From the IMG/VR virus record IMGVR_UViG_2698536379_000029: DNA of 10,637 bases. One strand, written 5' to 3'. Positions within the stretch are counted from its first letter, which is position 1; each line of letters begins with the position of its first letter. This document shows, in pieces, positions 1 through 10,637 of this stretch. The DNA comes from a virus (taxonomy: Duplodnaviria; Heunggongvirae; Uroviricota; Caudoviricetes). The notes beneath the pieces were generated by a model. That model was given only the letters and a program-made list of their open reading frames with translations. It was not told the DNA's origin and ran no database searches. The position numbers and the translations under genes are program-made.

Positions 1-483
1 ATGACGAAGAAAAAAGCACATAAACCTGGTTCAGCGACCATCGCGCTTAACAAGCGCGCCCGTCACGAATACTTTATTGAAGAAGAGTTCGAAGCGGGAC
101 TTGCCCTGCAAGGCTGGGAAGTTAAATCCCTGCGCGCAGGAAAAGCCAATATTAGCGACAGCTATGTCCTTCTGCGCGACGGAGAAGCGTTCCTGTTTGG
201 CGCAAACATCACGCCAATGGCTGTGGCTTCTACGCATGTGGTGTGCGATCCTACCCGTACTCGCAAGTTACTTCTCAACCAGCGCGAACTTGATTCGTTG
301 TACGGTCGCGTCAATCGAGAAGGCTATACCGTAGTGGCGCTCTCCCTGTACTGGAAAAATGCCTGGTGCAAAGTGAAAATCGGCGTCGCCAAAGGTAAGA
401 AACAGCACGATAAACGTTCAGATATCAAAGAACGCGAATGGCAGGTGGATAAAGCGCGTATCATGAAAAACGCCCACCGTTAA
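1..483 (+). CDS. smpB: SsrA-binding protein SmpB (trans-translation factor), complete 160 aa
   Basis: ATG at 1, TAA at 481-483; the 160-aa translation ([30 protein letters not shown]...) matches enterobacterial SmpB as I recall it; sits immediately upstream of ssrA as in E. coli/Salmonella. Confidence 0.95.
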
Positions 484-697: not shown

Positions 698-1060
698 GGG
701 GCTGATTCTGGATTCGACGGGATTTGCGAAACCCAAGGTGCATGCCGAGGGGCGGTTGGCCTCGTAAAAAGCCGCAAAAAATAGTCGCAAACGACGAAAA
801 CTACGCTTTAGCAGCTTAATAACCTGCTTAGAGCCCTCTCTCCCTAGCCTCCGCTCTTAGGACGGGGATCAAGAGAGGTCAAACCCAAAAGAGATCGCGT
901 GGAAGCCCTGCCTGGGGTTGAAGCGTTAAAACTTAATCAGGCTAGTTTGTTAGTGGCGTGTCCGTCCGCAGCTGGCAAGCGAATGTAAAGACTGACTAAG
1001 CATGTAGTACCGAGGATGTAGGAATTTCGGACGCGGGTTCAACTCCCGCCAGCTCCACCA
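698..1060 (+). ncRNA. ssrA: tmRNA (SsrA / 10Sa RNA), 363 nt
   Basis: Begins GGGGCTGATTCTGGATTCGACGGG and ends ...GGTTCAACTCCCGCCAGCTCCACCA (tRNA-Ala-like acceptor/T-arm with CCA); internal tag reading frame GCA AAC GAC GAA AAC TAC GCT TTA GCA GCT TAA at 787..819 encodes ANDENYALAA-stop. Confidence 0.97.
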
Positions 1061-1183: not shown

Positions 1184-1666
1184 ATGGAAGAACTTCACTT
1201 TGTTTACATCAATGCAAATGGTCGTATCGGTGTTCACTCAATACAGAGCATCAGTTATAGCGAAAATCACATACAGGGCATTTGTAAGAACACCGATCGA
1301 ATAAAAACCTTCCGAAAAGACCGCATTCTTAAACAATACGATTCACAAGAACAAGCCATTCAGGAATGCGCGTCATTCCTCCCCGAAAACTACTCACATC
1401 TCACTAAGCAGTCAGGTCCGAAAAAAAATACATTCGATGTGTGTTTCACCGGATTTAAGAAAGCAGATAAAGAAAGGTTGGTTGATAAGGCGAATGAACA
1501 AGGATTAACGGTAAGAACATCTGTAACCCAAAACCTTCAGATGCTCTGTTGCGGTTACAATGCAGGCCCATCAAAAGTATCGGCAGCCAGGATGAAAGGC
1601 ACTATCATCATAGATGAGCCTGGCTTTATACATTTTCTTGAAACGGGTGAGATCCCAGATGAATAA
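1184..1666 (+). CDS. Hypothetical two-domain protein: N-terminal WYL-like domain plus C-terminal BRCT domain (160 aa); probable prophage cargo (moron)
   Basis: ATG 1184 preceded by AAAGAGG (1171-1177); TAA at 1664-1666. N-terminal motif ...HIQGICKNTDRIKTFRKDRI resembles the WYL signature (R-x-FR-x-DRI); C-terminal ...VCFTGFKKADKERLVDKANEQGLTVRTSVTQNLQMLCCGYNAGPSKVSAARMKGTIIIDEPGFIHFL resembles the BRCT domain of NAD-dependent DNA ligase. Visibly AT-rich relative to the flanks. Domain calls are from motif recognition, not a search. Confidence 0.7.
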   Translation: MEELHFVYINANGRIGVHSIQSISYSENHIQGICKNTDRIKTFRKDRILKQYDSQEQAIQECASFLPENYSHLTKQSGPKKNTFDVCFTGFKKADKERLVDKANEQGLTVRTSVTQNLQMLCCGYNAGPSKVSAARMKGTIIIDEPGFIHFLETGEIPDE

Positions 1667-1979: not shown

Positions 1980-3080
1980 TTATTCCATTTCAAGATCACC
2001 AATTTTCACTTCAAGTTCAATACTGGTCGTAAAACCGTTATCCGGGCTGACGGTATGTGTCAGAGTCGTAATGGTCCATTCCGCATCATCTATTGGCTGT
2101 TTAAAGCCACTGACCTTCACAGGCATTTCCGTGTAGAGATCTGCCCGACCTTCCGCCAGTTGTAGCGAGAATGACGCAACACCGCGTTGCAGGCGTTCCC
2201 ACTGCATTTTCGCCGCTCGTTCGGCGTTGCTCCGGTTGGCATAAGTGCGATTAAGTACCAGCACGTTTTCATCCGTCCCCACCAGATAATCGCCCTGCTT
2301 CGCTTCCGGCTCTTTCTTCTGCTTCTTAGTTCTGCGCTTACGCTTCACCGTGGTGCTTTCTTTCTTCGCGGGTTCGCGGGTATGCAACCAGCTGGCAATG
2401 ACGCCCGTATAGGCTCCGCGATCTGCCAGGGTAAAGCGGTGACTGTCGCCGTCCTTACGCGTGATAGTGATCACCGGCAGTGGTTTACCGCTGGCGCTTT
2501 TGCCCTGTCCCTGCCGGATGAATAACAGATTGCCATTTTTCACCGATGCAATAGCACCGTACTGGCGCGCCAGTCGCATCAGAAAACTGCCGTCACTCTC
2601 ATTGGTCTGGTCTATATGTTCCACGGGTTTATCTGACAGGTCTTTACCCAATGCCATCTTCAGTTTGTGCCGTGCAGCTATTTCCTTCACCACTTCCCCA
2701 ACGGTGGTCTTGTGCCACGACTTTTCACGGCGGGTATTCAGCGTTTCACGAAAATCAGCACTTCGCGCCCGGATAGTCAGGCGGTCCGGTGCGCCAGTGT
2801 GTTCAATCTCGTCCACCGTGAATGCCCCTTTCGGGAAAAGCGGCTGCCCCTTCCAGCCCAGCGCCAGCGTAATAACCGCACCACGGCGCGGCAGCACGAT
2901 TTTTCCGTCGGCGTCGTCCAGCTCCAGATCAAGCTGGTCTGCTTCAAAGCCCCGATTGTCCGTCAGCGTCAAACTCATCAGGCGGTTATCCAGCACAGTG
3001 GTGATATCCCTGCCCTCAATACTGATGCTGAATGCGGGAGTTTTGTTGCCTTTGTTAAGCAGTTCAGAGCTGAAATTCAC
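1980..3080 (-). CDS. D: P2 gpD-like tail protein (late control gene D family), 366 aa
   Basis: Position immediately downstream of U with ATGA start/stop overlap at 3077-3080; size and sequence consistent with P2 gpD. Confidence 0.85.
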   Translation of the reverse strand: MNFSSELLNKGNKTPAFSISIEGRDITTVLDNRLMSLTLTDNRGFEADQLDLELDDADGKIVLPRRGAVITLALGWKGQPLFPKGAFTVDEIEHTGAPDRLTIRARSADFRETLNTRREKSWHKTTVGEVVKEIAARHKLKMALGKDLSDKPVEHIDQTNESDGSFLMRLARQYGAIASVKNGNLLFIRQGQGKSASGKPLPVITITRKDGDSHRFTLADRGAYTGVIASWLHTREPAKKESTTVKRKRRTKKQKKEPEAKQGDYLVGTDENVLVLNRTYANRSNAERAAKMQWERLQRGVASFSLQLAEGRADLYTEMPVKVSGFKQPIDDAEWTITTLTHTVSPDNGFTTSIELEVKIGDLEME

Positions 3081-3562
3081 GACAGCAGCCCTCCCACCGT
3101 TTTACTGATATCGCTTAAGGCAGACGTTGCCGTGTCCTGCAGATTATTCAGTTGCGCACTGAGATCACCGAACATATCGGACAGGGATTCATCCACCCGT
3201 TTGAGCGACAGGGTGAACTCAATCCGGCGCGGCATACCGTCGCGGAAAAACTCCGTTTTAGTCTGATTCAGTCCCTCAATCACATACATGCCGTAAATCG
3301 TGCCGCTGCCTTCAATCAGGGGCCATGCTTTCCCCTGTTCTGCCATCTGCTCCAGTACCAGCAATGACAGCCTGCCGCCTGTTATCTCCGGCATAAGAAC
3401 ACCAGAAAGCGTCAGCATGTCGTTGTCCGGTCCCAGAAACTGCGTGGACGGACGTCGGTTGACCCGGCTGTTTGCCGCATGTCGCCAGCTGCGTTGATAC
3501 TGCAGTTCCTGATACGGCACAGTGCGCAGCATAAACACGTACAATCCCAGCACCATCATCAT
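3077..3562 (-). CDS. U: P2 gpU-like tail protein, 161 aa
   Basis: MMMVLGLYVFMLRTVPYQ... start typical of P2 gpU; overlaps the T stop (3559-3562), suggesting translational coupling; T-U-D order. Confidence 0.85.
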   Translation of the reverse strand: MMMVLGLYVFMLRTVPYQELQYQRSWRHAANSRVNRRPSTQFLGPDNDMLTLSGVLMPEITGGRLSLLVLEQMAEQGKAWPLIEGSGTIYGMYVIEGLNQTKTEFFRDGMPRRIEFTLSLKRVDESLSDMFGDLSAQLNNLQDTATSALSDISKTVGGLLS

Positions 3563-6500
3563 GCGTCGTATCCCCCCTGATCGCTGTAGTTACTCCTGGC
3601 TTTTGCCTTCAGCCTGCGTTCACGTTCATCAAGCTGGCGTGCCACCTCCCGCGCAATATCCTGCGCACTTTGTCCTGGCTGCGTCTGGATGATGATCTGC
3701 GTCGGTGCCTCAATCCGTTGAGCGGGCGGCACAGTGGCTGCACGACTCACCATCGCTTCGCCGCCTTTCGCGGGAAGTGCCAAAGGATGTAACGGCGGAA
3801 GCTCTGCAGGCGCGGCAGCAACGCCCATCATTCCGGCAACAACGGCAGCCAGTGCAGCTGTATTTCTCCGACTGGTCACGTTTGCCGGACCGTTGACAAT
3901 TTCAGGCCCGTTTTCACCGACAATGCCGAACTGCCCGCGCGGGATATAGCCGCCGCTGTCATACATCCCCGCAAAGCCATATCCCCATGACGGAAAACCA
4001 CCCGATGGCATCATCACTTTACCGTCTGCATTCACCGTCGCAGGTTGCTGACGCGTCACGCTTTCCGGCAGTTTCGCCTTTGCAGCCTCTTTACTGACAA
4101 TACCGAGTTTCTCCAGCAACCAGGAAACGCCGGATTTCAGGGAGTCCAACGGATGCATGACCATATTCAGCCCTTCCGCCAGTGCCTCCCCGAATCGTCG
4201 CCCCATTGCCGCTGCGCTCTGCAGTTCGGCAGAGGTCGACTTAACAGGCGTCAGCAGATCAGTAAACCAGCCCCACAACGCCTGTACTTTGTCGCCAATC
4301 CACTGGAACACGGGCTTAAGCGGTTCGAATGCAGCACTGATGGGACCTGCCGCCGCTTTGAATCCTTCCACCACGCCACCGAGAAATGCGGTGATGGGTT
4401 GCCAGTATTTCCAGACAACCAGCGCCACGCCCGCCAGTGCAGTAACCACAAGACCTATCGGACTGAGCAGAGCACCTAACAGACCAGATACGGCATACAG
4501 GGCAACGCGCAGCATCGCCAGCGGACCGGATGCCAGCACACGCAGCACCGCGCCTGCGGCAGCCAGTCCACCGCGTAGTGCTGCCAGTGGATTCATAAAC
4601 ATCACAGCAACCGCACGTAAACCGGATAATCCAGACCGCAACAGTGCAACCGGCACACCTGCTACAGTTTTCAGGACATTCCCCGTCAGTGATGCGGTGC
4701 GGCGCAAAGACGACAACGGCGCAGTAAGTAAACCCGCTGCGTTGCCCGATGAAGCAAGCCCGCGTCGCAGCAGTGCCAGTGGAGCGCCAGCTAACCAGGA
4801 CAACGCGCTGCTGGTTCGTGTTACTGCTGCCGTAACGGAAGGTAACGTTTTGATACCCAGCACAGAGAATCCCAGACGGATGACTGCCAGCGGCCCCAGC
4901 ACTGCAGCCAGCGCCACCGCTAAGGTGCCGAGGCCTACGGTAACCGCAGCCACAACAGCCGCTACTTTCATCAGTGTGCCTGTCAGTTCCGGGTTAGCTT
5001 CCACCCAGCGGCGCAACGCCCCCGTGATGCTTTTTACCGTGTACAGAATATCCATCAGCGGCTGGCGCAGCGTTTCGCCCAGGCTGCTGAAGGTGTTCTG
5101 CGCTCCGGTTTTGACCAGCAACCACTGAGCGGAAAGTGAGTCTTTGTTGATGTCGGATTCTTTCTGCATGGAACCGAGCGCATCATTGCCCGCTGTCAGT
5201 TTTAGCTGGCGCTGCAGTTCCGGAAGGTTGTTTGCCAGTTTCGCTGCATCATCACCAAACTCTTTACCAAACAACATGGTCATGGCAGACAGACGCTTGT
5301 CCTGCGGCAGTGCGTTCACCTTCTCCAGCACACGCTGGATAGTTCCCATCGCATCCTTCGTCATCTGCTTTTCAATCACTTCAGGATTGAGTTTCAGCAG
5401 ATTCATCCCTTCAAAGAAACTCTTACTTTGCATGGTGGCAATGGACAATTCACGCACCATCGCGTTTGCTGCACTGGCAGCAACCTCCGGCGCAGCGCCC
5501 AGTGTCAGGAAGGTGGAACCCAGCGCCGCCGCTTTACGATAATCCAGACGATCTGCCACACCGCCCAGGCGTTGCATGACATCAATGATGTCTGACCCTT
5601 TCGACATGGCGTTATCATCCAGATAGTTCAGCGCATCACCGAGCTGTTCAATATTGCGGGTAGGGATTTTGTAGAGCTGGGCGATTTTCCCCAGACTTTC
5701 TGACAGTTCATCCGCTGGCAGCTCAAAGGCTGTTGCCGCCTTTGCTGCCGTGCTGGCGAAGGCCAGCAGGTCACGTTTCTGGTCTTCCCAGCTGTCGTCA
5801 GGATTTGCGACGTTCATGCGCGCACCACCTTCAACCAGTGCGGCAAAGTCCACAGCACCGTTTTCCATCGGCAACTGTTCGCTGGCAGCCTTGATGGCAT
5901 CCTGCATTTCGTAAAAACGCGCAGTGCGGTTGCCATTATCATCACGCAGACCATTGACCTGCTTTGCCACACCTTTCATGGCATCTTCCATGCTGGTATA
6001 GCTTTTTACTGCTGCCATCACTGGCGCACCCATTGCCAGCCCTGCAGCCGTGGTAGTGGCTCCGGCTCCTGCGATGCGATCGCGCACTTCAAGCCGTCTT
6101 GAGTATTGTTCTCTGGCAGCGTTCATCCGTGCCTGTTGTTCACCCAGACGTTTAAGTGCTTTTTGCTGGCCCTCCAGTGCCTGCCTTGTTTCTTCAGCAT
6201 TTTTCTTAAGTTCTCGCTGGGCACTACTGAGTTGTCTGGTATCAATCCCTGATTCTTTAAGTGCCTGACGTTGTCTCTGGACCGCCCCCAACAAGCCGTT
6301 ATAGGTCTGCTGAAGTTCCTGTACTCGTGTTTTGGCCTGACTGAATAACTTTGCCTGCGCGGCGGTTGGCCTGTTAGTGGCAGCAAATTGTGTGGCGAGT
6401 TTTGCCGCCTCTTCGCGGGCTGCGTTCAGGTTGTTGGCTGTTATGGCTAGTTGCGAGCGCGTCTTGCGAAATTCATCAATTCTGCCAGCCTGCTTATTCA

Positions 6501-6636
6501 GTTCTTTGAGGCTGTTTCGGGTATTCTGAATTGCGCCAGCCAGCTCTTTCGAACTGGCCTGTGCAACACGGAATGGGCGGGTGAGTTTGTCAACCGCATT
6601 AAGAATGACCTGCAGCCGCAGGTTGTTATCACTCAT
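3559..6636 (-). CDS. T: Phage tail tape measure protein (P2 gpT-like), 1025 aa
   Basis: Very long ORF directly after the E/E' chaperone pair; coiled-coil-like N-terminal half (Q/A/R/E/L-rich), repetitive Ala/Leu/Gly-rich hydrophobic central region, C-terminal globular region; start ATG overlaps the E+E' stop (ATGAGTGA). Confidence 0.9.
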   Translation of the reverse strand: MSDNNLRLQVILNAVDKLTRPFRVAQASSKELAGAIQNTRNSLKELNKQAGRIDEFRKTRSQLAITANNLNAAREEAAKLATQFAATNRPTAAQAKLFSQAKTRVQELQQTYNGLLGAVQRQRQALKESGIDTRQLSSAQRELKKNAEETRQALEGQQKALKRLGEQQARMNAAREQYSRRLEVRDRIAGAGATTTAAGLAMGAPVMAAVKSYTSMEDAMKGVAKQVNGLRDDNGNRTARFYEMQDAIKAASEQLPMENGAVDFAALVEGGARMNVANPDDSWEDQKRDLLAFASTAAKAATAFELPADELSESLGKIAQLYKIPTRNIEQLGDALNYLDDNAMSKGSDIIDVMQRLGGVADRLDYRKAAALGSTFLTLGAAPEVAASAANAMVRELSIATMQSKSFFEGMNLLKLNPEVIEKQMTKDAMGTIQRVLEKVNALPQDKRLSAMTMLFGKEFGDDAAKLANNLPELQRQLKLTAGNDALGSMQKESDINKDSLSAQWLLVKTGAQNTFSSLGETLRQPLMDILYTVKSITGALRRWVEANPELTGTLMKVAAVVAAVTVGLGTLAVALAAVLGPLAVIRLGFSVLGIKTLPSVTAAVTRTSSALSWLAGAPLALLRRGLASSGNAAGLLTAPLSSLRRTASLTGNVLKTVAGVPVALLRSGLSGLRAVAVMFMNPLAALRGGLAAAGAVLRVLASGPLAMLRVALYAVSGLLGALLSPIGLVVTALAGVALVVWKYWQPITAFLGGVVEGFKAAAGPISAAFEPLKPVFQWIGDKVQALWGWFTDLLTPVKSTSAELQSAAAMGRRFGEALAEGLNMVMHPLDSLKSGVSWLLEKLGIVSKEAAKAKLPESVTRQQPATVNADGKVMMPSGGFPSWGYGFAGMYDSGGYIPRGQFGIVGENGPEIVNGPANVTSRRNTAALAAVVAGMMGVAAAPAELPPLHPLALPAKGGEAMVSRAATVPPAQRIEAPTQIIIQTQPGQSAQDIAREVARQLDERERRLKAKARSNYSDQGGYDA

Positions 6637-7065
6637 CGTTGGCCCCGCTTCTCTGAATCGCTTTATACCGCCATTCCAGCACTTCGGTCAGCGGCATAAC
6701 GTCAGTAACGGATGGCGGCCAGTGAAAGATGGTGGCGATATCAGCCACCAGATCGTCAACCGTCAGGCTGTCGGTAAACCGGCAAGCACCGACTTCTTCA
6801 ACAAAAAAGTGACAACCTCAACCGACATGGCAGTGAGATCTGCCGGGTCCATCTCTGCAATTTCCTGTGCAGTCAGTGCCGGACTGGAGATACGGGGGAT
6901 CACGGTCATCATCGCGTTCACATCCATATCCATAATGGCCTGCAGGCGTGTACCGCGCAGCGCACCGGACTGCGGTTTACGCAGCACAATTTCGGTGATT
7001 TCTGTTTTACCGCGCTTGATGGGGGTATCCAGTTGAATAGTCTTTTCAGTCTGCTTATCGCTCAT
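6629..7065 (-). CDS. E': Tail assembly chaperone gpE+E' made by programmed -1 ribosomal frameshift (about 144 aa)
   Basis: I checked codon by codon that the -1 frame is open from the slippery site (6802-6808) down to a TGA at 6629-6631, which overlaps the T start codon; this mirrors the P2 E/E+E' and lambda G/GT arrangement. Confidence 0.65.
6763..7065 (-). CDS. E: Tail assembly chaperone gpE (zero-frame product), 100 aa
   Basis: Small ORF between FII and T; its 3' end contains the slippery heptamer T TTT TTG (..VTFLLKK..). Confidence 0.8.
   Translation of the reverse strand: MSDKQTEKTIQLDTPIKRGKTEITEIVLRKPQSGALRGTRLQAIMDMDVNAMMTVIPRISSPALTAQEIAEMDPADLTAMSVEVVTFLLKKSVLAGLPTA
6802..6808 (-). 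other. -1 programmed frameshift slippery heptamer TTTTTTG (minus strand)
   Basis: Plus-strand CAAAAAA at 6802-6808 is minus-strand T TTT TTG in the gpE zero frame; the -1 frame downstream is open for 57 codons. Confidence 0.65.
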
Positions 7066-7119: not shown

Positions 7120-7635
7120 TCAGAGGCCGAGGGCGTTGCGGTGCGCTTCCATCAGGTCCACACCGTCCACAATTTCCACCATGTTGATAAGGTCCACTTC
7201 ATAGAGCACCTCACCATTGATGGTCAGCTTCGCGTAGCTGTTGGTACTGGTCACTTTGGTGGTGTTGCTTTCGCCCGTCTTCCACTCGCCGGAATCCACT
7301 TCTTTGTGACGTCCACGCACCACAAGCTCCACGGCCTGCACTTCCCCGGTATCGTCACGCTGGATAGAGCCGGTAAAGCGCAGCTGAATGCCATCTACCG
7401 TGGCTTTGCCCATCTGCTTAAACAGCAGCAGTTCAGTACCACCAATGGAAAATTCTGTGTCCAGCGCACTGTCATCAAGCCCCAGATCCACATCCACTGC
7501 ACCCGGCATTCCGCCGCCGCGATACTTCTCATATTTGCGGGTGAATTTCGGCAGCGTCAGCGACTCAACGATCCCCTGCCAGTTGTTCCCGTCGTTAAAC
7601 AGGTTCAGATGTTTTAATTTGCGTGGTAAAGCCAT
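7120..7635 (-). CDS. FII: Tail tube protein (P2 gpFII-like), 171 aa
   Basis: MALPRKLKHLNLF... N-terminus and length characteristic of P2 FII; lies 9 bp downstream of FI. Confidence 0.9.
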   Translation of the reverse strand: MALPRKLKHLNLFNDGNNWQGIVESLTLPKFTRKYEKYRGGGMPGAVDVDLGLDDSALDTEFSIGGTELLLFKQMGKATVDGIQLRFTGSIQRDDTGEVQAVELVVRGRHKEVDSGEWKTGESNTTKVTSTNSYAKLTINGEVLYEVDLINMVEIVDGVDLMEAHRNALGL

Positions 7636-7644
7636 GTTGTCCCC

Positions 7645-8817
7645 TTACGCGCTGACCTGGCTGGCGAAATTCACCAGGTACTGATCGGTGATGCGCTGGC
7701 GCAGCATCAGATTTTCAAGTGGCGGCACTGGCGTGTAGTCATAGTCGATGGTGAGTTTTCCGGCTTTCAGCGTGTCTTTGTCGTTCACCGACTCATCCAG
7801 CCAGCAATCACCACCAATGAGATAGCCCTGACTGACCAGGCTGCGTATTTTGGCGCGGATACCTTCGATAATGTCGCGGGCCAGCGACGGGTTAAGCGGT
7901 TTATCCACCGCCCACATGTGTGCTTCTGCCATTGTGTCCGTCAGCACCTGCGCCGTGCGGGTGTAGTTTTCGAAGGCAAAAAGCGGATCATCGCTCAGAC
8001 AGCGGGAACCCCAGAAGCGGAAACCGTCTTTACGCACAAGCGTGGTGACGTCGTTCTGGTTCAGCAGACCTGCATCGGTTGCCGGGTCCTGCAGATCCCA
8101 GAACACATCTGCAGAAATTCCGGTGACACCGTTCACGCCCACGTTGGACAGGCTTTTGTGCCACCCGGTCTGCTCATCAATTTTGGCACGCAGACCAAGT
8201 GCACGGGCGGTGGCATATGCCGTTGCTTCGGCATTCAGCACCGTGTCCCAGCCAGTAAAGTCGGGCCAGATCAGCATTCCTTCGCGCTGGCTGAAGTTTT
8301 CACGGTAAGTGATCGCCTCCTGTACCGTCTTGCAGCCATACGCTGACAGGTAAGCAAACCCACGCAGGCTTTGCGCCACGCTCAGCAACTCAGTCGCAAC
8401 GGCTTTGTTATCGTGACCTGGCACGCCGAGAATGCGCGGTTTAACGCCGAGCTGTGACTGGGCAGATAACAGAGCTTTCATGCCTGTTTTTTTACCTTCA
8501 GCAGTCACTGCGCCGATGATATTGGTCGTGGTTTCTTCTTCCGTTTCACCCTGCGGCACACGCACAACAACGGTCACGGGTTTTGCCTGGTCAGCGATGG
8601 CATCCAGCGAACGGGCCAGCGTGCCGGACTCACCCGCTTTACCGCTGGCAGTCAGCACATCAGTGATCAGCACAGGTTTGTTAAGAGGAAACATTTTTGC
8701 ATCGGCATCATCGCCCGTGCAGACCATGCCCACGATGGCGGTGCTCACCGTGGTAATGGATCGGGTGCCTTCGTTGACTTCAACAACGCGCACCCCGTGG
8801 TGGTAATCCTGAGCCAT
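7645..8817 (-). CDS. FI: Contractile tail sheath protein (P2 gpFI-like), 390 aa
   Basis: Length and sequence characteristic of Myoviridae sheath protein; strong SD (AGGAGG) 6-11 nt upstream of ATG 8817; first gene of the FI-FII-E-T-U-D operon. Confidence 0.9.
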
Positions 8818-8893
8818 AGTGGCGAACCTCCTGATTGGATTAGGCTTCGCCCTATGTTGAAGTGATTGTGCCTGACAAACAGCTAAGCGCAGT

Positions 8894-8911
8894 TGTACCG
8901 TTATTCACACA
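8894..8911 (-). promoter_or_regulatory. Candidate Ogr-dependent late promoter element (TGT-N12-ACA dyad) for the FI operon
   Basis: TGT ACCGTTATTCAC ACA at 8894-8911, centred about 85 bp upstream of the FI ATG, compatible with the P2 late-promoter dyad centred near -55 plus a roughly 30-nt leader; no clear -10 identified. Confidence 0.35.
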
Positions 8912-8921
8912 AAATGACGGT

Positions 8922-9526
8922 ATTTGTCTACTTGCAGGGATAATCAAAATAATGCTGATTCAGGGGGATTCATTACTCTTATTTGCCGGAAATTTTCTAT
9001 AAATTGTGGAAACACCCACATCAAAAATCAGTGCAATACGCTGTCTTGATTCTCCGGCCTCGAGTAAACGCCCAATCTGTGCCCACTGTTCGGTGGTCAA
9101 CTTAGGACGGCGTCCACCTACTCTGCCTTTGGCACGAGCTGCAGCCAGCCCTGCCCTGGTACGTTCAACTATCAGTTCGCGTTCCATTTCAGCCAGGGCA
9201 CCCATGACATGAAAAAAGAAACGGCCCATTGGGGTACTGGTATCAATACTGTCAGTCAGGCTTCGGAAATTCACACCACGCTGGCGCAACTCCTCTATCA
9301 GCGTAACAAGATGCCGCATACTGCGCCCCAACCTGTCCAGCTTCCAGACAACCAGCGTGTCTCCTGCCGATAGTGTCCTGAGCAGCTTTTTCAGCCCCGG
9401 TCTGTCGGACTTAGTGCCACTGATTTTATCCTCAAAAATCCGCTCACATCCCGCGCAGTTCAGTGCATTACGTTGCAAATCGGTGTTCTGGTCATTTGTT
9501 GACACGCGTACATAGCCAATAAGCAT
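8922..9526. repeat. Direct repeat copy A (at least 605 bp, period 1111 bp)
   Basis: 8922..9526 is identical base for base to 10033..10637 in my reading; identity starts one base after a t/a mismatch at 8921/10032. Confidence 0.9.
8960..9526 (-). CDS. Site-specific DNA invertase, serine recombinase of the Pin/Gin/Cin/Hin family, 188 aa (copy 1)
   Basis: MLIGYVRVSTNDQNTDLQRNAL... with the catalytic Ser in the YVRVST motif and a C-terminal HTH (GVSTIYRKFPA); strongly resembles E. coli Pin / Mu Gin as I recall them. Two in-frame ATGs lie upstream (9532 and 9526); I chose 9526 by family alignment. Confidence 0.9.
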   Translation of the reverse strand: MLIGYVRVSTNDQNTDLQRNALNCAGCERIFEDKISGTKSDRPGLKKLLRTLSAGDTLVVWKLDRLGRSMRHLVTLIEELRQRGVNFRSLTDSIDTSTPMGRFFFHVMGALAEMERELIVERTRAGLAAARAKGRVGGRRPKLTTEQWAQIGRLLEAGESRQRIALIFDVGVSTIYRKFPANKSNESP

Positions 9527-9553
9527 GATCATCCCCCTGAATAAAAACCGGAG

Positions 9554-9952
9554 ATGATGCCAGTTAGCCGTTATCTCTGCATTTTCATAAACGTTGGTTT
9601 GGGAGAAGCGGCGAAAAGGGATGTGGGCACAGGAGATAATCAGATACCGGATATGGGAGCATTCGCTTCTGGTTCGGGATGGTTCAGGCTACCAGGTGGA
9701 TATATTGTTCAGTTTGGCACTTTTGCAGGAAACACGACCCGCTTTATCAGTGGACACTTCCCTATACCATTCCCTAATCAGCCGATGGTTTCAGTCAGTG
9801 TTATGTCTGATGCCGTTCAGTCAGACCCGTCGATTCCTGCCCCGCAGGTTTTGTCTGTAAATTTTGAACATATCAGTAATTCAGCGTGGCGTGTGGCAAC
9901 CAGTGATATCTCACAGCAATACAGATTCAGTTATATTTCGATAGGACGGTAG
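9554..9952 (+). CDS. Promoterless tail-fibre C-terminal (receptor-binding) cassette in silent orientation; true coding part probably begins at the crossover site
   Basis: ORF reads through the crossover site and away from the invertase; contains a tail-fibre-tip-like motif (GWFRLPGGYIVQFG); followed 2 bp later by the ATG of a tail-fibre assembly gene, the Sv'-U' arrangement of Mu/P1 invertible segments. It is on the opposite strand to the late operon, so not expressed as arranged. Confidence 0.45.
   Translation: MMPVSRYLCIFINVGLGEAAKRDVGTGDNQIPDMGAFASGSGWFRLPGGYIVQFGTFAGNTTRFISGHFPIPFPNQPMVSVSVMSDAVQSDPSIPAPQVLSVNFEHISNSAWRVATSDISQQYRFSYISIGR
9583..9608. other. Candidate 26-bp recombination crossover site (hix/gix/cix-like)
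   Basis: TTTTCATAAACG TT GGTTTGGGAGAA: two imperfect inverted 12-bp half-sites around a 2-bp core, fitting the pattern TT-TC--AAAC(C)--GGTTT--GA-AA; about 55 bp upstream of the invertase start, as for gixR-gin and cix-cin. Confidence 0.5.
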
Positions 9953-9954
9953 AA

Positions 9955-10113
9955 ATGCAGAAATATATTTTCAGTGCCGATAAAAATGCGTTTTTCCCTG
10001 TGGAGCTTAAAATCGCTTATCAGGAATCCGGAATTTGTCTACTTGCAGGGATAATCAAAATAATGCTGATTCAGGGGGATTCATTACTCTTATTTGCCGG
10101 AAATTTTCTATAA
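9955..10113 (+). pseudogene. Tail-fibre assembly protein (Tfa/gpG/U-like) 5' fragment, truncated at the duplication junction
   Basis: MQKYIFSADKNAFFPVELKIAYQESG... resembles Tfa N-termini; after codon 26 (position 10032/10033) the frame runs into the repeated invertase-downstream sequence and stops at 10113. Confidence 0.4.
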
Positions 10114-10637
10114 ATTGTGGAAACACCCACATCAAAAATCAGTGCAATACGCTGTCTTGATTCTCCGGCCTCGAGTAAACGCCCAATCTGTGCCCACTGT
10201 TCGGTGGTCAACTTAGGACGGCGTCCACCTACTCTGCCTTTGGCACGAGCTGCAGCCAGCCCTGCCCTGGTACGTTCAACTATCAGTTCGCGTTCCATTT
10301 CAGCCAGGGCACCCATGACATGAAAAAAGAAACGGCCCATTGGGGTACTGGTATCAATACTGTCAGTCAGGCTTCGGAAATTCACACCACGCTGGCGCAA
10401 CTCCTCTATCAGCGTAACAAGATGCCGCATACTGCGCCCCAACCTGTCCAGCTTCCAGACAACCAGCGTGTCTCCTGCCGATAGTGTCCTGAGCAGCTTT
10501 TTCAGCCCCGGTCTGTCGGACTTAGTGCCACTGATTTTATCCTCAAAAATCCGCTCACATCCCGCGCAGTTCAGTGCATTACGTTGCAAATCGGTGTTCT
10601 GGTCATTTGTTGACACGCGTACATAGCCAATAAGCAT
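10033..10637. repeat. Direct repeat copy B (truncated by the window end)
   Basis: See copy A; whether identity continues past 10637 (a full 1111-bp tandem unit) cannot be seen here. Confidence 0.9.
10071..10637 (-). CDS. Site-specific DNA invertase, Pin/Gin/Hin family, 188 aa (copy 2, identical to copy 1)
   Basis: Nucleotide-identical to 8960..9526; its ATG is the last three bases of the window (10635-10637). Confidence 0.85.
   Translation of the reverse strand: MLIGYVRVSTNDQNTDLQRNALNCAGCERIFEDKISGTKSDRPGLKKLLRTLSAGDTLVVWKLDRLGRSMRHLVTLIEELRQRGVNFRSLTDSIDTSTPMGRFFFHVMGALAEMERELIVERTRAGLAAARAKGRVGGRRPKLTTEQWAQIGRLLEAGESRQRIALIFDVGVSTIYRKFPANKSNESP

Follow-up and report, generated by a model that had tools for sequence, protein, structure and literature searches.

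A pixR-type crossover site next to a Pin-family invertase gene: the very probable invertase-proximal end of a tail-fibre host-range switch in a P2/Fels-2-like prophage

Pin/pix crossover sites, Fis-dependent invertasomes and the invertible fibre segments of P2-like prophages have all been described already. The P segment of the e14 element of Escherichia coli K-12 includes the invertase gene pinE, the sites pixL and pixR, and two divergent pairs of a fibre cassette and a chaperone gene (stfP-tfaP and tfaE-stfE), with the site lying in frame in the fibre gene; e14 itself is a lambdoid remnant at icd. In the G segment of phage Mu (gin, gixL and gixR, S-U and S'-U'), the site is located 54 bp upstream of the invertase gene, outside the segment, and the silent cassette points away from the invertase. 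The gix core is GA, the half-sites differ from those of pixR, and the G segment is 3 kb long with larger variable parts than those of the locus considered here. In the C segment of phage P1 (cin, cixL and cixR), cin points toward cixL, a site that overlaps the 3' end of the gene. The hin gene of Salmonella lies inside its own invertible segment and governs a promoter, not a fibre. The sites of both P1 and the Hin/hix system conform to the common Din-family consensus, and in both a Fis enhancer is embedded in the 5' portion of the invertase gene. Invertible fibre segments located between H/G and the sheath gene are known from P2-like elements, namely from enteropathogenic E. coli E2348/69 (PMC4272514) and from Cartapus, KP12 and 500465-1. 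Phase variation of the e14 segment and of P2-like prophage segments was shown experimentally in clonal cultures (PMC4272514).

The object of the present analysis was a DNA stretch of 10,637 nucleotides (IMG/VR record IMGVR_UViG_2698536379_000029), hereafter the window. Its features are listed in Table 1. The prophage, which is P2/Fels-2-like, comes directly after smpB and the tmRNA gene and therefore occupies the ssrA integration site, the one that Fels-2 uses in Salmonella. The ogr gene is the first in a run of P2/Fels-2-like late tail genes ending with the sheath gene, which is followed by the invertase gene, and to the right of the invertase gene lie an open reading frame with a fibre cassette (cassette A) and the start of a tail-fibre assembly chaperone (tfa) gene. 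A 160-aa BRCT-like protein is encoded at the prophage end, where its gene separates the tmRNA gene from ogr. It matched phrog_2561 'DNA ligase' (2.5e-77) and, weakly, the PADLOC candidate system PDC-S48 (1.7e-7), and may be the product of an accessory or defence gene.

Table 1. Features of the window (coordinates are window positions unless stated otherwise)
Feature	Coordinates	Strand	Details
smpB	1-483		
tmRNA gene	698-1060		tag ANDENYALAA
BRCT-like protein gene	1184-1666	+	160 aa
ogr		-	first of the late tail-gene run
D	1980-3080	-	
U		-	between D and tape measure
Tape measure	3559-6636	-	
E/E'		-	between tape measure and tube
Tube	7120-7635	-	
Sheath	7645-8817	-	
Pin-family serine DNA invertase	8960-9526	-	188 aa, intact; domain, structure and identity matches
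Predicted Fis-dependent recombinational enhancer	9437-9508	-	invertase nt 19-90; homology only
pixR-type crossover site	9582-9607	.	consensus match; identity to pixR and to the e14 copy
Outer half of the site	9582-9593		TTTTCATAAACG
Core of the site	9594-9595		TT
Inner half of the site	9596-9607		GGTTTGGGAGAA; codes G-L-G-E of the fibre
Putative silent variable cassette A	9608-9952	+	gp53-like C-terminal receptor-binding part of tail fibre H
Tail-fibre assembly chaperone gene of cassette A, first 77 nt	9955-10031	+	phrog_188; ended by the scaffold join
Scaffold join	10032 (L003 10078)	.	N in source record CYAE01000039.1, A in the window
Second invertase-region copy	10033-10637	-	gene 10071-10637; 100% identical to 8922-9526

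The system found in the window appears to be another member of the P2-like group of invertible segments, with no substantive difference. The phage type and the position between H/G and the sheath gene are the same, the whole unit of invertase, site and cassette is 98.2% identical to that of KP12, and the invertase gene shares 100% nucleotide identity with that of the P2-like phage Cartapus. One locus of E2348/69 has three sites and is shufflon-like (PMC4272514); the relatives of the window show two.

A Din-family 26-bp site is present upstream of the invertase gene, reading TTTTCATAAACG TT GGTTTGGGAGAA on the plus strand and TTCTCCCAAACC AA CGTTTATGAAAA on the minus strand. A preliminary description of this DNA had reported a 26-bp element with 12-bp half-sites and a 2-bp core. 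The element is real, but it had been placed one base too far to the right, at 9583-9608: the half-sites are symmetrical at 8 of 12 positions in the register 9582-9607 versus 4 of 12 in the earlier one. It had also been called hix/gix-like, and the match to the Din consensus bears out the family; more exactly, the site is that of a Pin-family invertase, since its reverse complement is identical at all 26 positions to pixR as given in a published table of Din-family sites (PMC3241671, Table 3). The same 26-mer occurs in e14 of E. coli K-12 (L007 4606-4631), where it lies 54 bp upstream of pinE; in the window, 55 bp separate the site from the invertase ATG at 9526, the distance initially given as about 55 bp. 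Judged by its sequence, then, the element goes beyond a resemblance to hix or gix: it is pixR, a known crossover site used by the Pin DNA invertase of E. coli.

The window was scanned with the Din consensus TTCNNNNAAACNNNNGTTTNNNNGAA, allowing up to two mismatches and with shuffled sequences as background. The site at 9582-9607, with one mismatch, was the only match, whereas 0.06 matches were expected in shuffles. No second site with two or fewer mismatches was found within the window, in line with the original statement that only one is visible there. Exact copies of the pixR 26-mer were confined to Escherichia and Shigella in a scan of one genome per species, a result that bears on host range only. 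The same site was found in the relatives L001, L002, L004 and L005, and in several phage genomes the homology to the window breaks off at 9605-9617, the edge of the site. That the element is an imperfect palindrome arisen by chance, without a role in recombination, has nothing in its favor except the imperfect symmetry (8 of 12). This explanation is vanishingly improbable, given that all 26 positions agree with those of an experimentally defined site, that the position of the element beside the invertase gene is kept in all relatives examined and that homology breakpoints coincide with it; it was ruled out by the identity to pixR and to the e14 copy together with the flipped segments in complete genomes described below.

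The site is located within the 5' end of a 132-codon open reading frame (9554-9952) that points away from the invertase gene, exactly as had been proposed for the start of a fibre cassette. The first 14 codons of this frame (9554-9595, MMPVSRYLCIFINV) are non-fibre and fall at the border of the invertible segment or outside it. Cassette A (9608-9952) matched PF21882 (5.3e-9) and tail-fibre PHROGs. As arranged in the window, cassette A would be in the silent position and would be expressed only after being joined by inversion to the constant part of H. In RefSeq, the silent cassette A is labeled as a free-standing 'gp53-like domain-containing protein'. Homology of the adjacent chaperone gene to tfa genes ends at 10031, while its counterpart in L001 runs on as a 146-aa tfa gene.

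The geometry had been likened to both the Mu G and the P1 C segments. The likeness holds for gixR-gin of Mu, and also for pixR-pinE of e14, but not for P1, with its cixL at the 3' end of cin. The e14 segment shares with the window system the divergent cassette and chaperone pairs, the in-frame position of the site and the site itself, and differs in the type of the element, a lambdoid remnant versus a P2/Fels-2-like myovirus prophage.

The invertase gene is intact, with an alternative ATG at 9532. The Resolvase (2.3e-53, positions 2-144 of 145) and HTH_7 (1.5e-15, positions 1-44 of 45) profiles were both matched over their full length, and the protein aligned end to end with the Gin structures 3UJ3/4M6F (E=8e-93). 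The catalytic Ser9 is present, aligned to the S9A position of 3UJ3. Therefore, the enzyme has the make-up of a Din-family recombinase: about 190 aa, an N-terminal catalytic domain with the active-site serine and a C-terminal helix-turn-helix. It is 85% identical in amino acid sequence to PinE and 73% identical to Gin; with PinE as the closest enzyme and a site equal to pixR, it falls into the Pin subgroup.

The Cin enhancer is annotated in the P1 record at cin nt 19-90, and the location of the predicted enhancer in the window was taken from this annotation and from conservation only. This stretch of the invertase gene is 78% identical to that of P1 (71% for nt 91-390) and 88% identical to that of pinE (81% for nt 91-390). 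It contains two 15-mers of the form G-N13-C, at nt 22-36 and 71-85 of the gene. Among nine invertases, the use of identical codons at synonymous sites was 0.57 for codons 7-30 versus 0.41 for codons 31-180, a modest excess. Conservation of the 5' part of the gene is consistent with an embedded DNA element, although it is no proof in itself. Fis dependence of inversion and activity of the switch in this particular strain are inferred. A simple scan of 8800-10100 revealed no sigma-70-like candidate for the invertase promoter, and promoter and terminator scans of this region gave nothing above the shuffle background.

The preliminary description had expected an inverted partner site at the constant part of the fibre gene H. 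A partner in this orientation and with the same core is indeed present in the intact homologous prophages L001, L004 and L005, but the first site to follow the window in the source scaffold is another pixR in direct orientation, next to a second invertase gene and linked via a single N. For this genome, neither the inverted partner nor the constant part of H can be seen, as the contig ends 232 bp past the window. In E. coli GPEC1222 (L001), the order is sheath gene, invertase gene, site, cassette A, its chaperone gene, a second chaperone gene on the opposite strand and H, which encodes a 504-aa "tail-collar" fibre. The strongest inverted repeat in 4 kb of L001 consists of the invertase-proximal site (6783-6809) and a site inside H (8613-8639), which falls at the junction of the constant and variable parts, about 1.8 kb away. 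The inner halves and cores of the two sites are identical (TT GGTTTGGGAGAAG; cores TT and AA), while their outer halves differ, as do those of hixL and hixR. The H-side partner of the relatives reads TTCTCCCAAACC AA GGTATGTGAGAA; compared with pixL of e14, its outer half is different, and the cassettes differ too. The inner half codes for G-L-G-E at residue 351 of H in L001, and therefore either cassette can be joined in frame to the constant 350 aa of H. Accordingly, inversion of the L001 segment in silico replaced the 504-aa H carrying the Collar cassette (cassette B) with an in-frame 468-aa H ending in cassette A. Thus, the locus shows the organization of a fibre switch, with the site in frame in the fibre gene and a separate chaperone gene for each C-terminal cassette. 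In another relative, E. coli 23CRST010 (L002, 6161-7555), an IS26 insertion interrupts the invertase gene, so that the switch is presumably locked.

Comparison of L001 with L004 showed colinear flanks up to both sites and an inverted interior, the breakpoints being the sites themselves. The L001 segment flipped in silico matched complete genomes in a single piece with 96.7-98.5% identity. Among 5426 complete E. coli genomes, the joint of invertase, pixR and cassette B was found in 924 and that with cassette A in 117. Strain ERP001 (NZ_CP063214.1; L017, L018) has two copies of the region, separated by 25.9 kb that span the record origin; they share 99.6-100% identity in the flanks and 99.8% in the segment, which is inverted in one relative to the other. 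One of the ERP001 copies carries frameshifted genes. This doubling is probably an untrimmed overlap of a long-read assembly that caught both states. The two orientations therefore occur between genomes and within ERP001, a relative with 97.5% identity, and the source scaffold contains both joints. The invertible tail-fibre segment initially deduced from a single site is supported by the in-frame flip and by the natural occurrence of both states with breakpoints at the sites.

Two different P2-like prophages were found in GPEC1222 (L001 6792-8639 and L019 1774-3621). Their flanks are only 68-80% identical, and yet they have in common a site-bounded 1848-bp invertible segment with 99.7% identity, in opposite orientations, which suggests that the whole invertible segment was exchanged between the prophages.

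We conclude with high confidence that 9582-9607 is the invertase-proximal site of a tail-fibre host-range switch of the Pin/Gin/Hin family in a P2/Fels-2-like prophage. The steps of the mechanism follow from the invertase family. Dimers of the adjacent serine invertase would bind this site and the inverted partner inside H, and the enhancer, located toward the 5' end of the invertase gene and bound by Fis, would assemble them into an invertasome. All four strands would then be cut at the 2-bp core (TT/AA) and exchanged, flipping a segment of about 1.8 kb that holds the two divergent pairs of cassette and chaperone gene. The phage could thereby alternate between two receptor-binding tips, the gp53-like one of cassette A and the Collar-type one of cassette B.

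The window also contains a direct repeat, in which 8922-9526 equals 10033-10637, with a spacing of 1111 bp. The full exact repeat is 687 bp long (window 8922-9608 and L003 10079-10765, 100% identical), since past the window the second copy runs on to an identical pixR (L003 10739-10764) and then to cassette B. The copies part directly after GGGAGAAG, where the second one enters cassette B (GSALPVGVPVPW..., Collar domain), and the source contig ends 150 bp beyond this divergence (L003 10915). The window differs from record CYAE01000039.1 (assembly GCA_001277435.1) at position 10032 only. The N of the record at this position is the only N in the 10.9-kb locus and separates the truncated chaperone gene from the second invertase copy. 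Since the junction base is N, the "duplication" represents a scaffold join and not read-through sequence, and the 52-codon open reading frame 9955-10113 is a chimera across the scaffold gap. The first copy is joined to cassette A and the second to cassette B, so both states of the switch are present in one assembly. The simplest reading is that the sequenced DNA contained both states of one switch, or two identical prophage copies, and that a small contig of the alternative state, showing the invertase gene and pixR joined to cassette B, was appended with a minimal (1-N) gap. The duplicated invertase gene in the record thus probably arose from a switch captured in two states. A De Bruijn hairpin artefact across inverted repeats was rejected, because it would yield an inverted and not a direct duplication.

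Alternatively, the tandem duplication could be real, a 1111-bp direct repeat comprising the invertase gene, pixR, cassette A and the 5' end of tfa', so that two invertase genes and two direct pixR sites would precede a normal segment. The direct, not hairpin-like, orientation of the copies agrees with this, CGG occurs both beside the join and at the left boundary of the first copy (a 3-bp microhomology-type junction), and inversion between the site of the second copy and the H-side site would place cassette B by the second copy. However, a true junction covered by reads should assemble without an N, and no read-through sequence supports the one in the record. The junction 30-mer was absent from the 5426 complete E. 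coli genomes, GTDB representatives and JGI metagenomes; the exact-match scans of GTDB and JGI used the A of the window in place of N and are weak tests, as a junction with another base would go unmatched. We therefore regard a real duplication as very unlikely. If it were true, the inverted partner would be preceded by a tandem pair of invertase genes and by two pixR sites in direct orientation; with three sites so arranged, inversions could be nested or the invertase could excise a 1.1-kb circle, an outcome to which we likewise give a slight chance.

The capture of a working switch in two states was also weighed against a genuine site that is a fossil in this genome, the H-side partner having been lost or the prophage otherwise rearranged so that nothing inverts. 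In that case, the contig with the invertase gene, pixR and cassette B would come from a second prophage, possibly a tandem copy. The contig ends ahead of any H sequence, and the two joints, linked by an N alone, could stem from two prophage copies. Many E. coli genomes have several related P2-like prophages, with up to 7-15 places per genome; GPEC1222 offers an example of two such prophages with opposite segment orientations, and the relative with IS26 in its invertase gene (L002) is an example of a presumably locked locus. On the other hand, the invertase gene is intact here, and the 687 bp common to the two copies show 100% identity, as against a divergence of about 2-20% between this stretch and independent prophages (identity of 97.2-97.7% in L001, L004, L017 and L018, 95.8% in L005 and 80.8% in L019). 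Even two identical prophages in opposite states would imply a recent inversion. A fossil site is thus unlikely, though less so than a real tandem duplication.

The active switch remains the preferred interpretation, and the initial reading of the locus is supported. The main added value of the analysis is a warning that the duplicated invertase gene in the record hangs on a single-N scaffold join. For annotation, the 132-codon "gp53-like" open reading frame would be best understood as a promoterless alternative fibre tip and not as a free-standing gene, and the crossover site marks the invertase-proximal boundary of the phase-variable segment. Biologically the system brings nothing new, being a host-range switch of an ordinary and thoroughly described sort in a prophage of a known kind.
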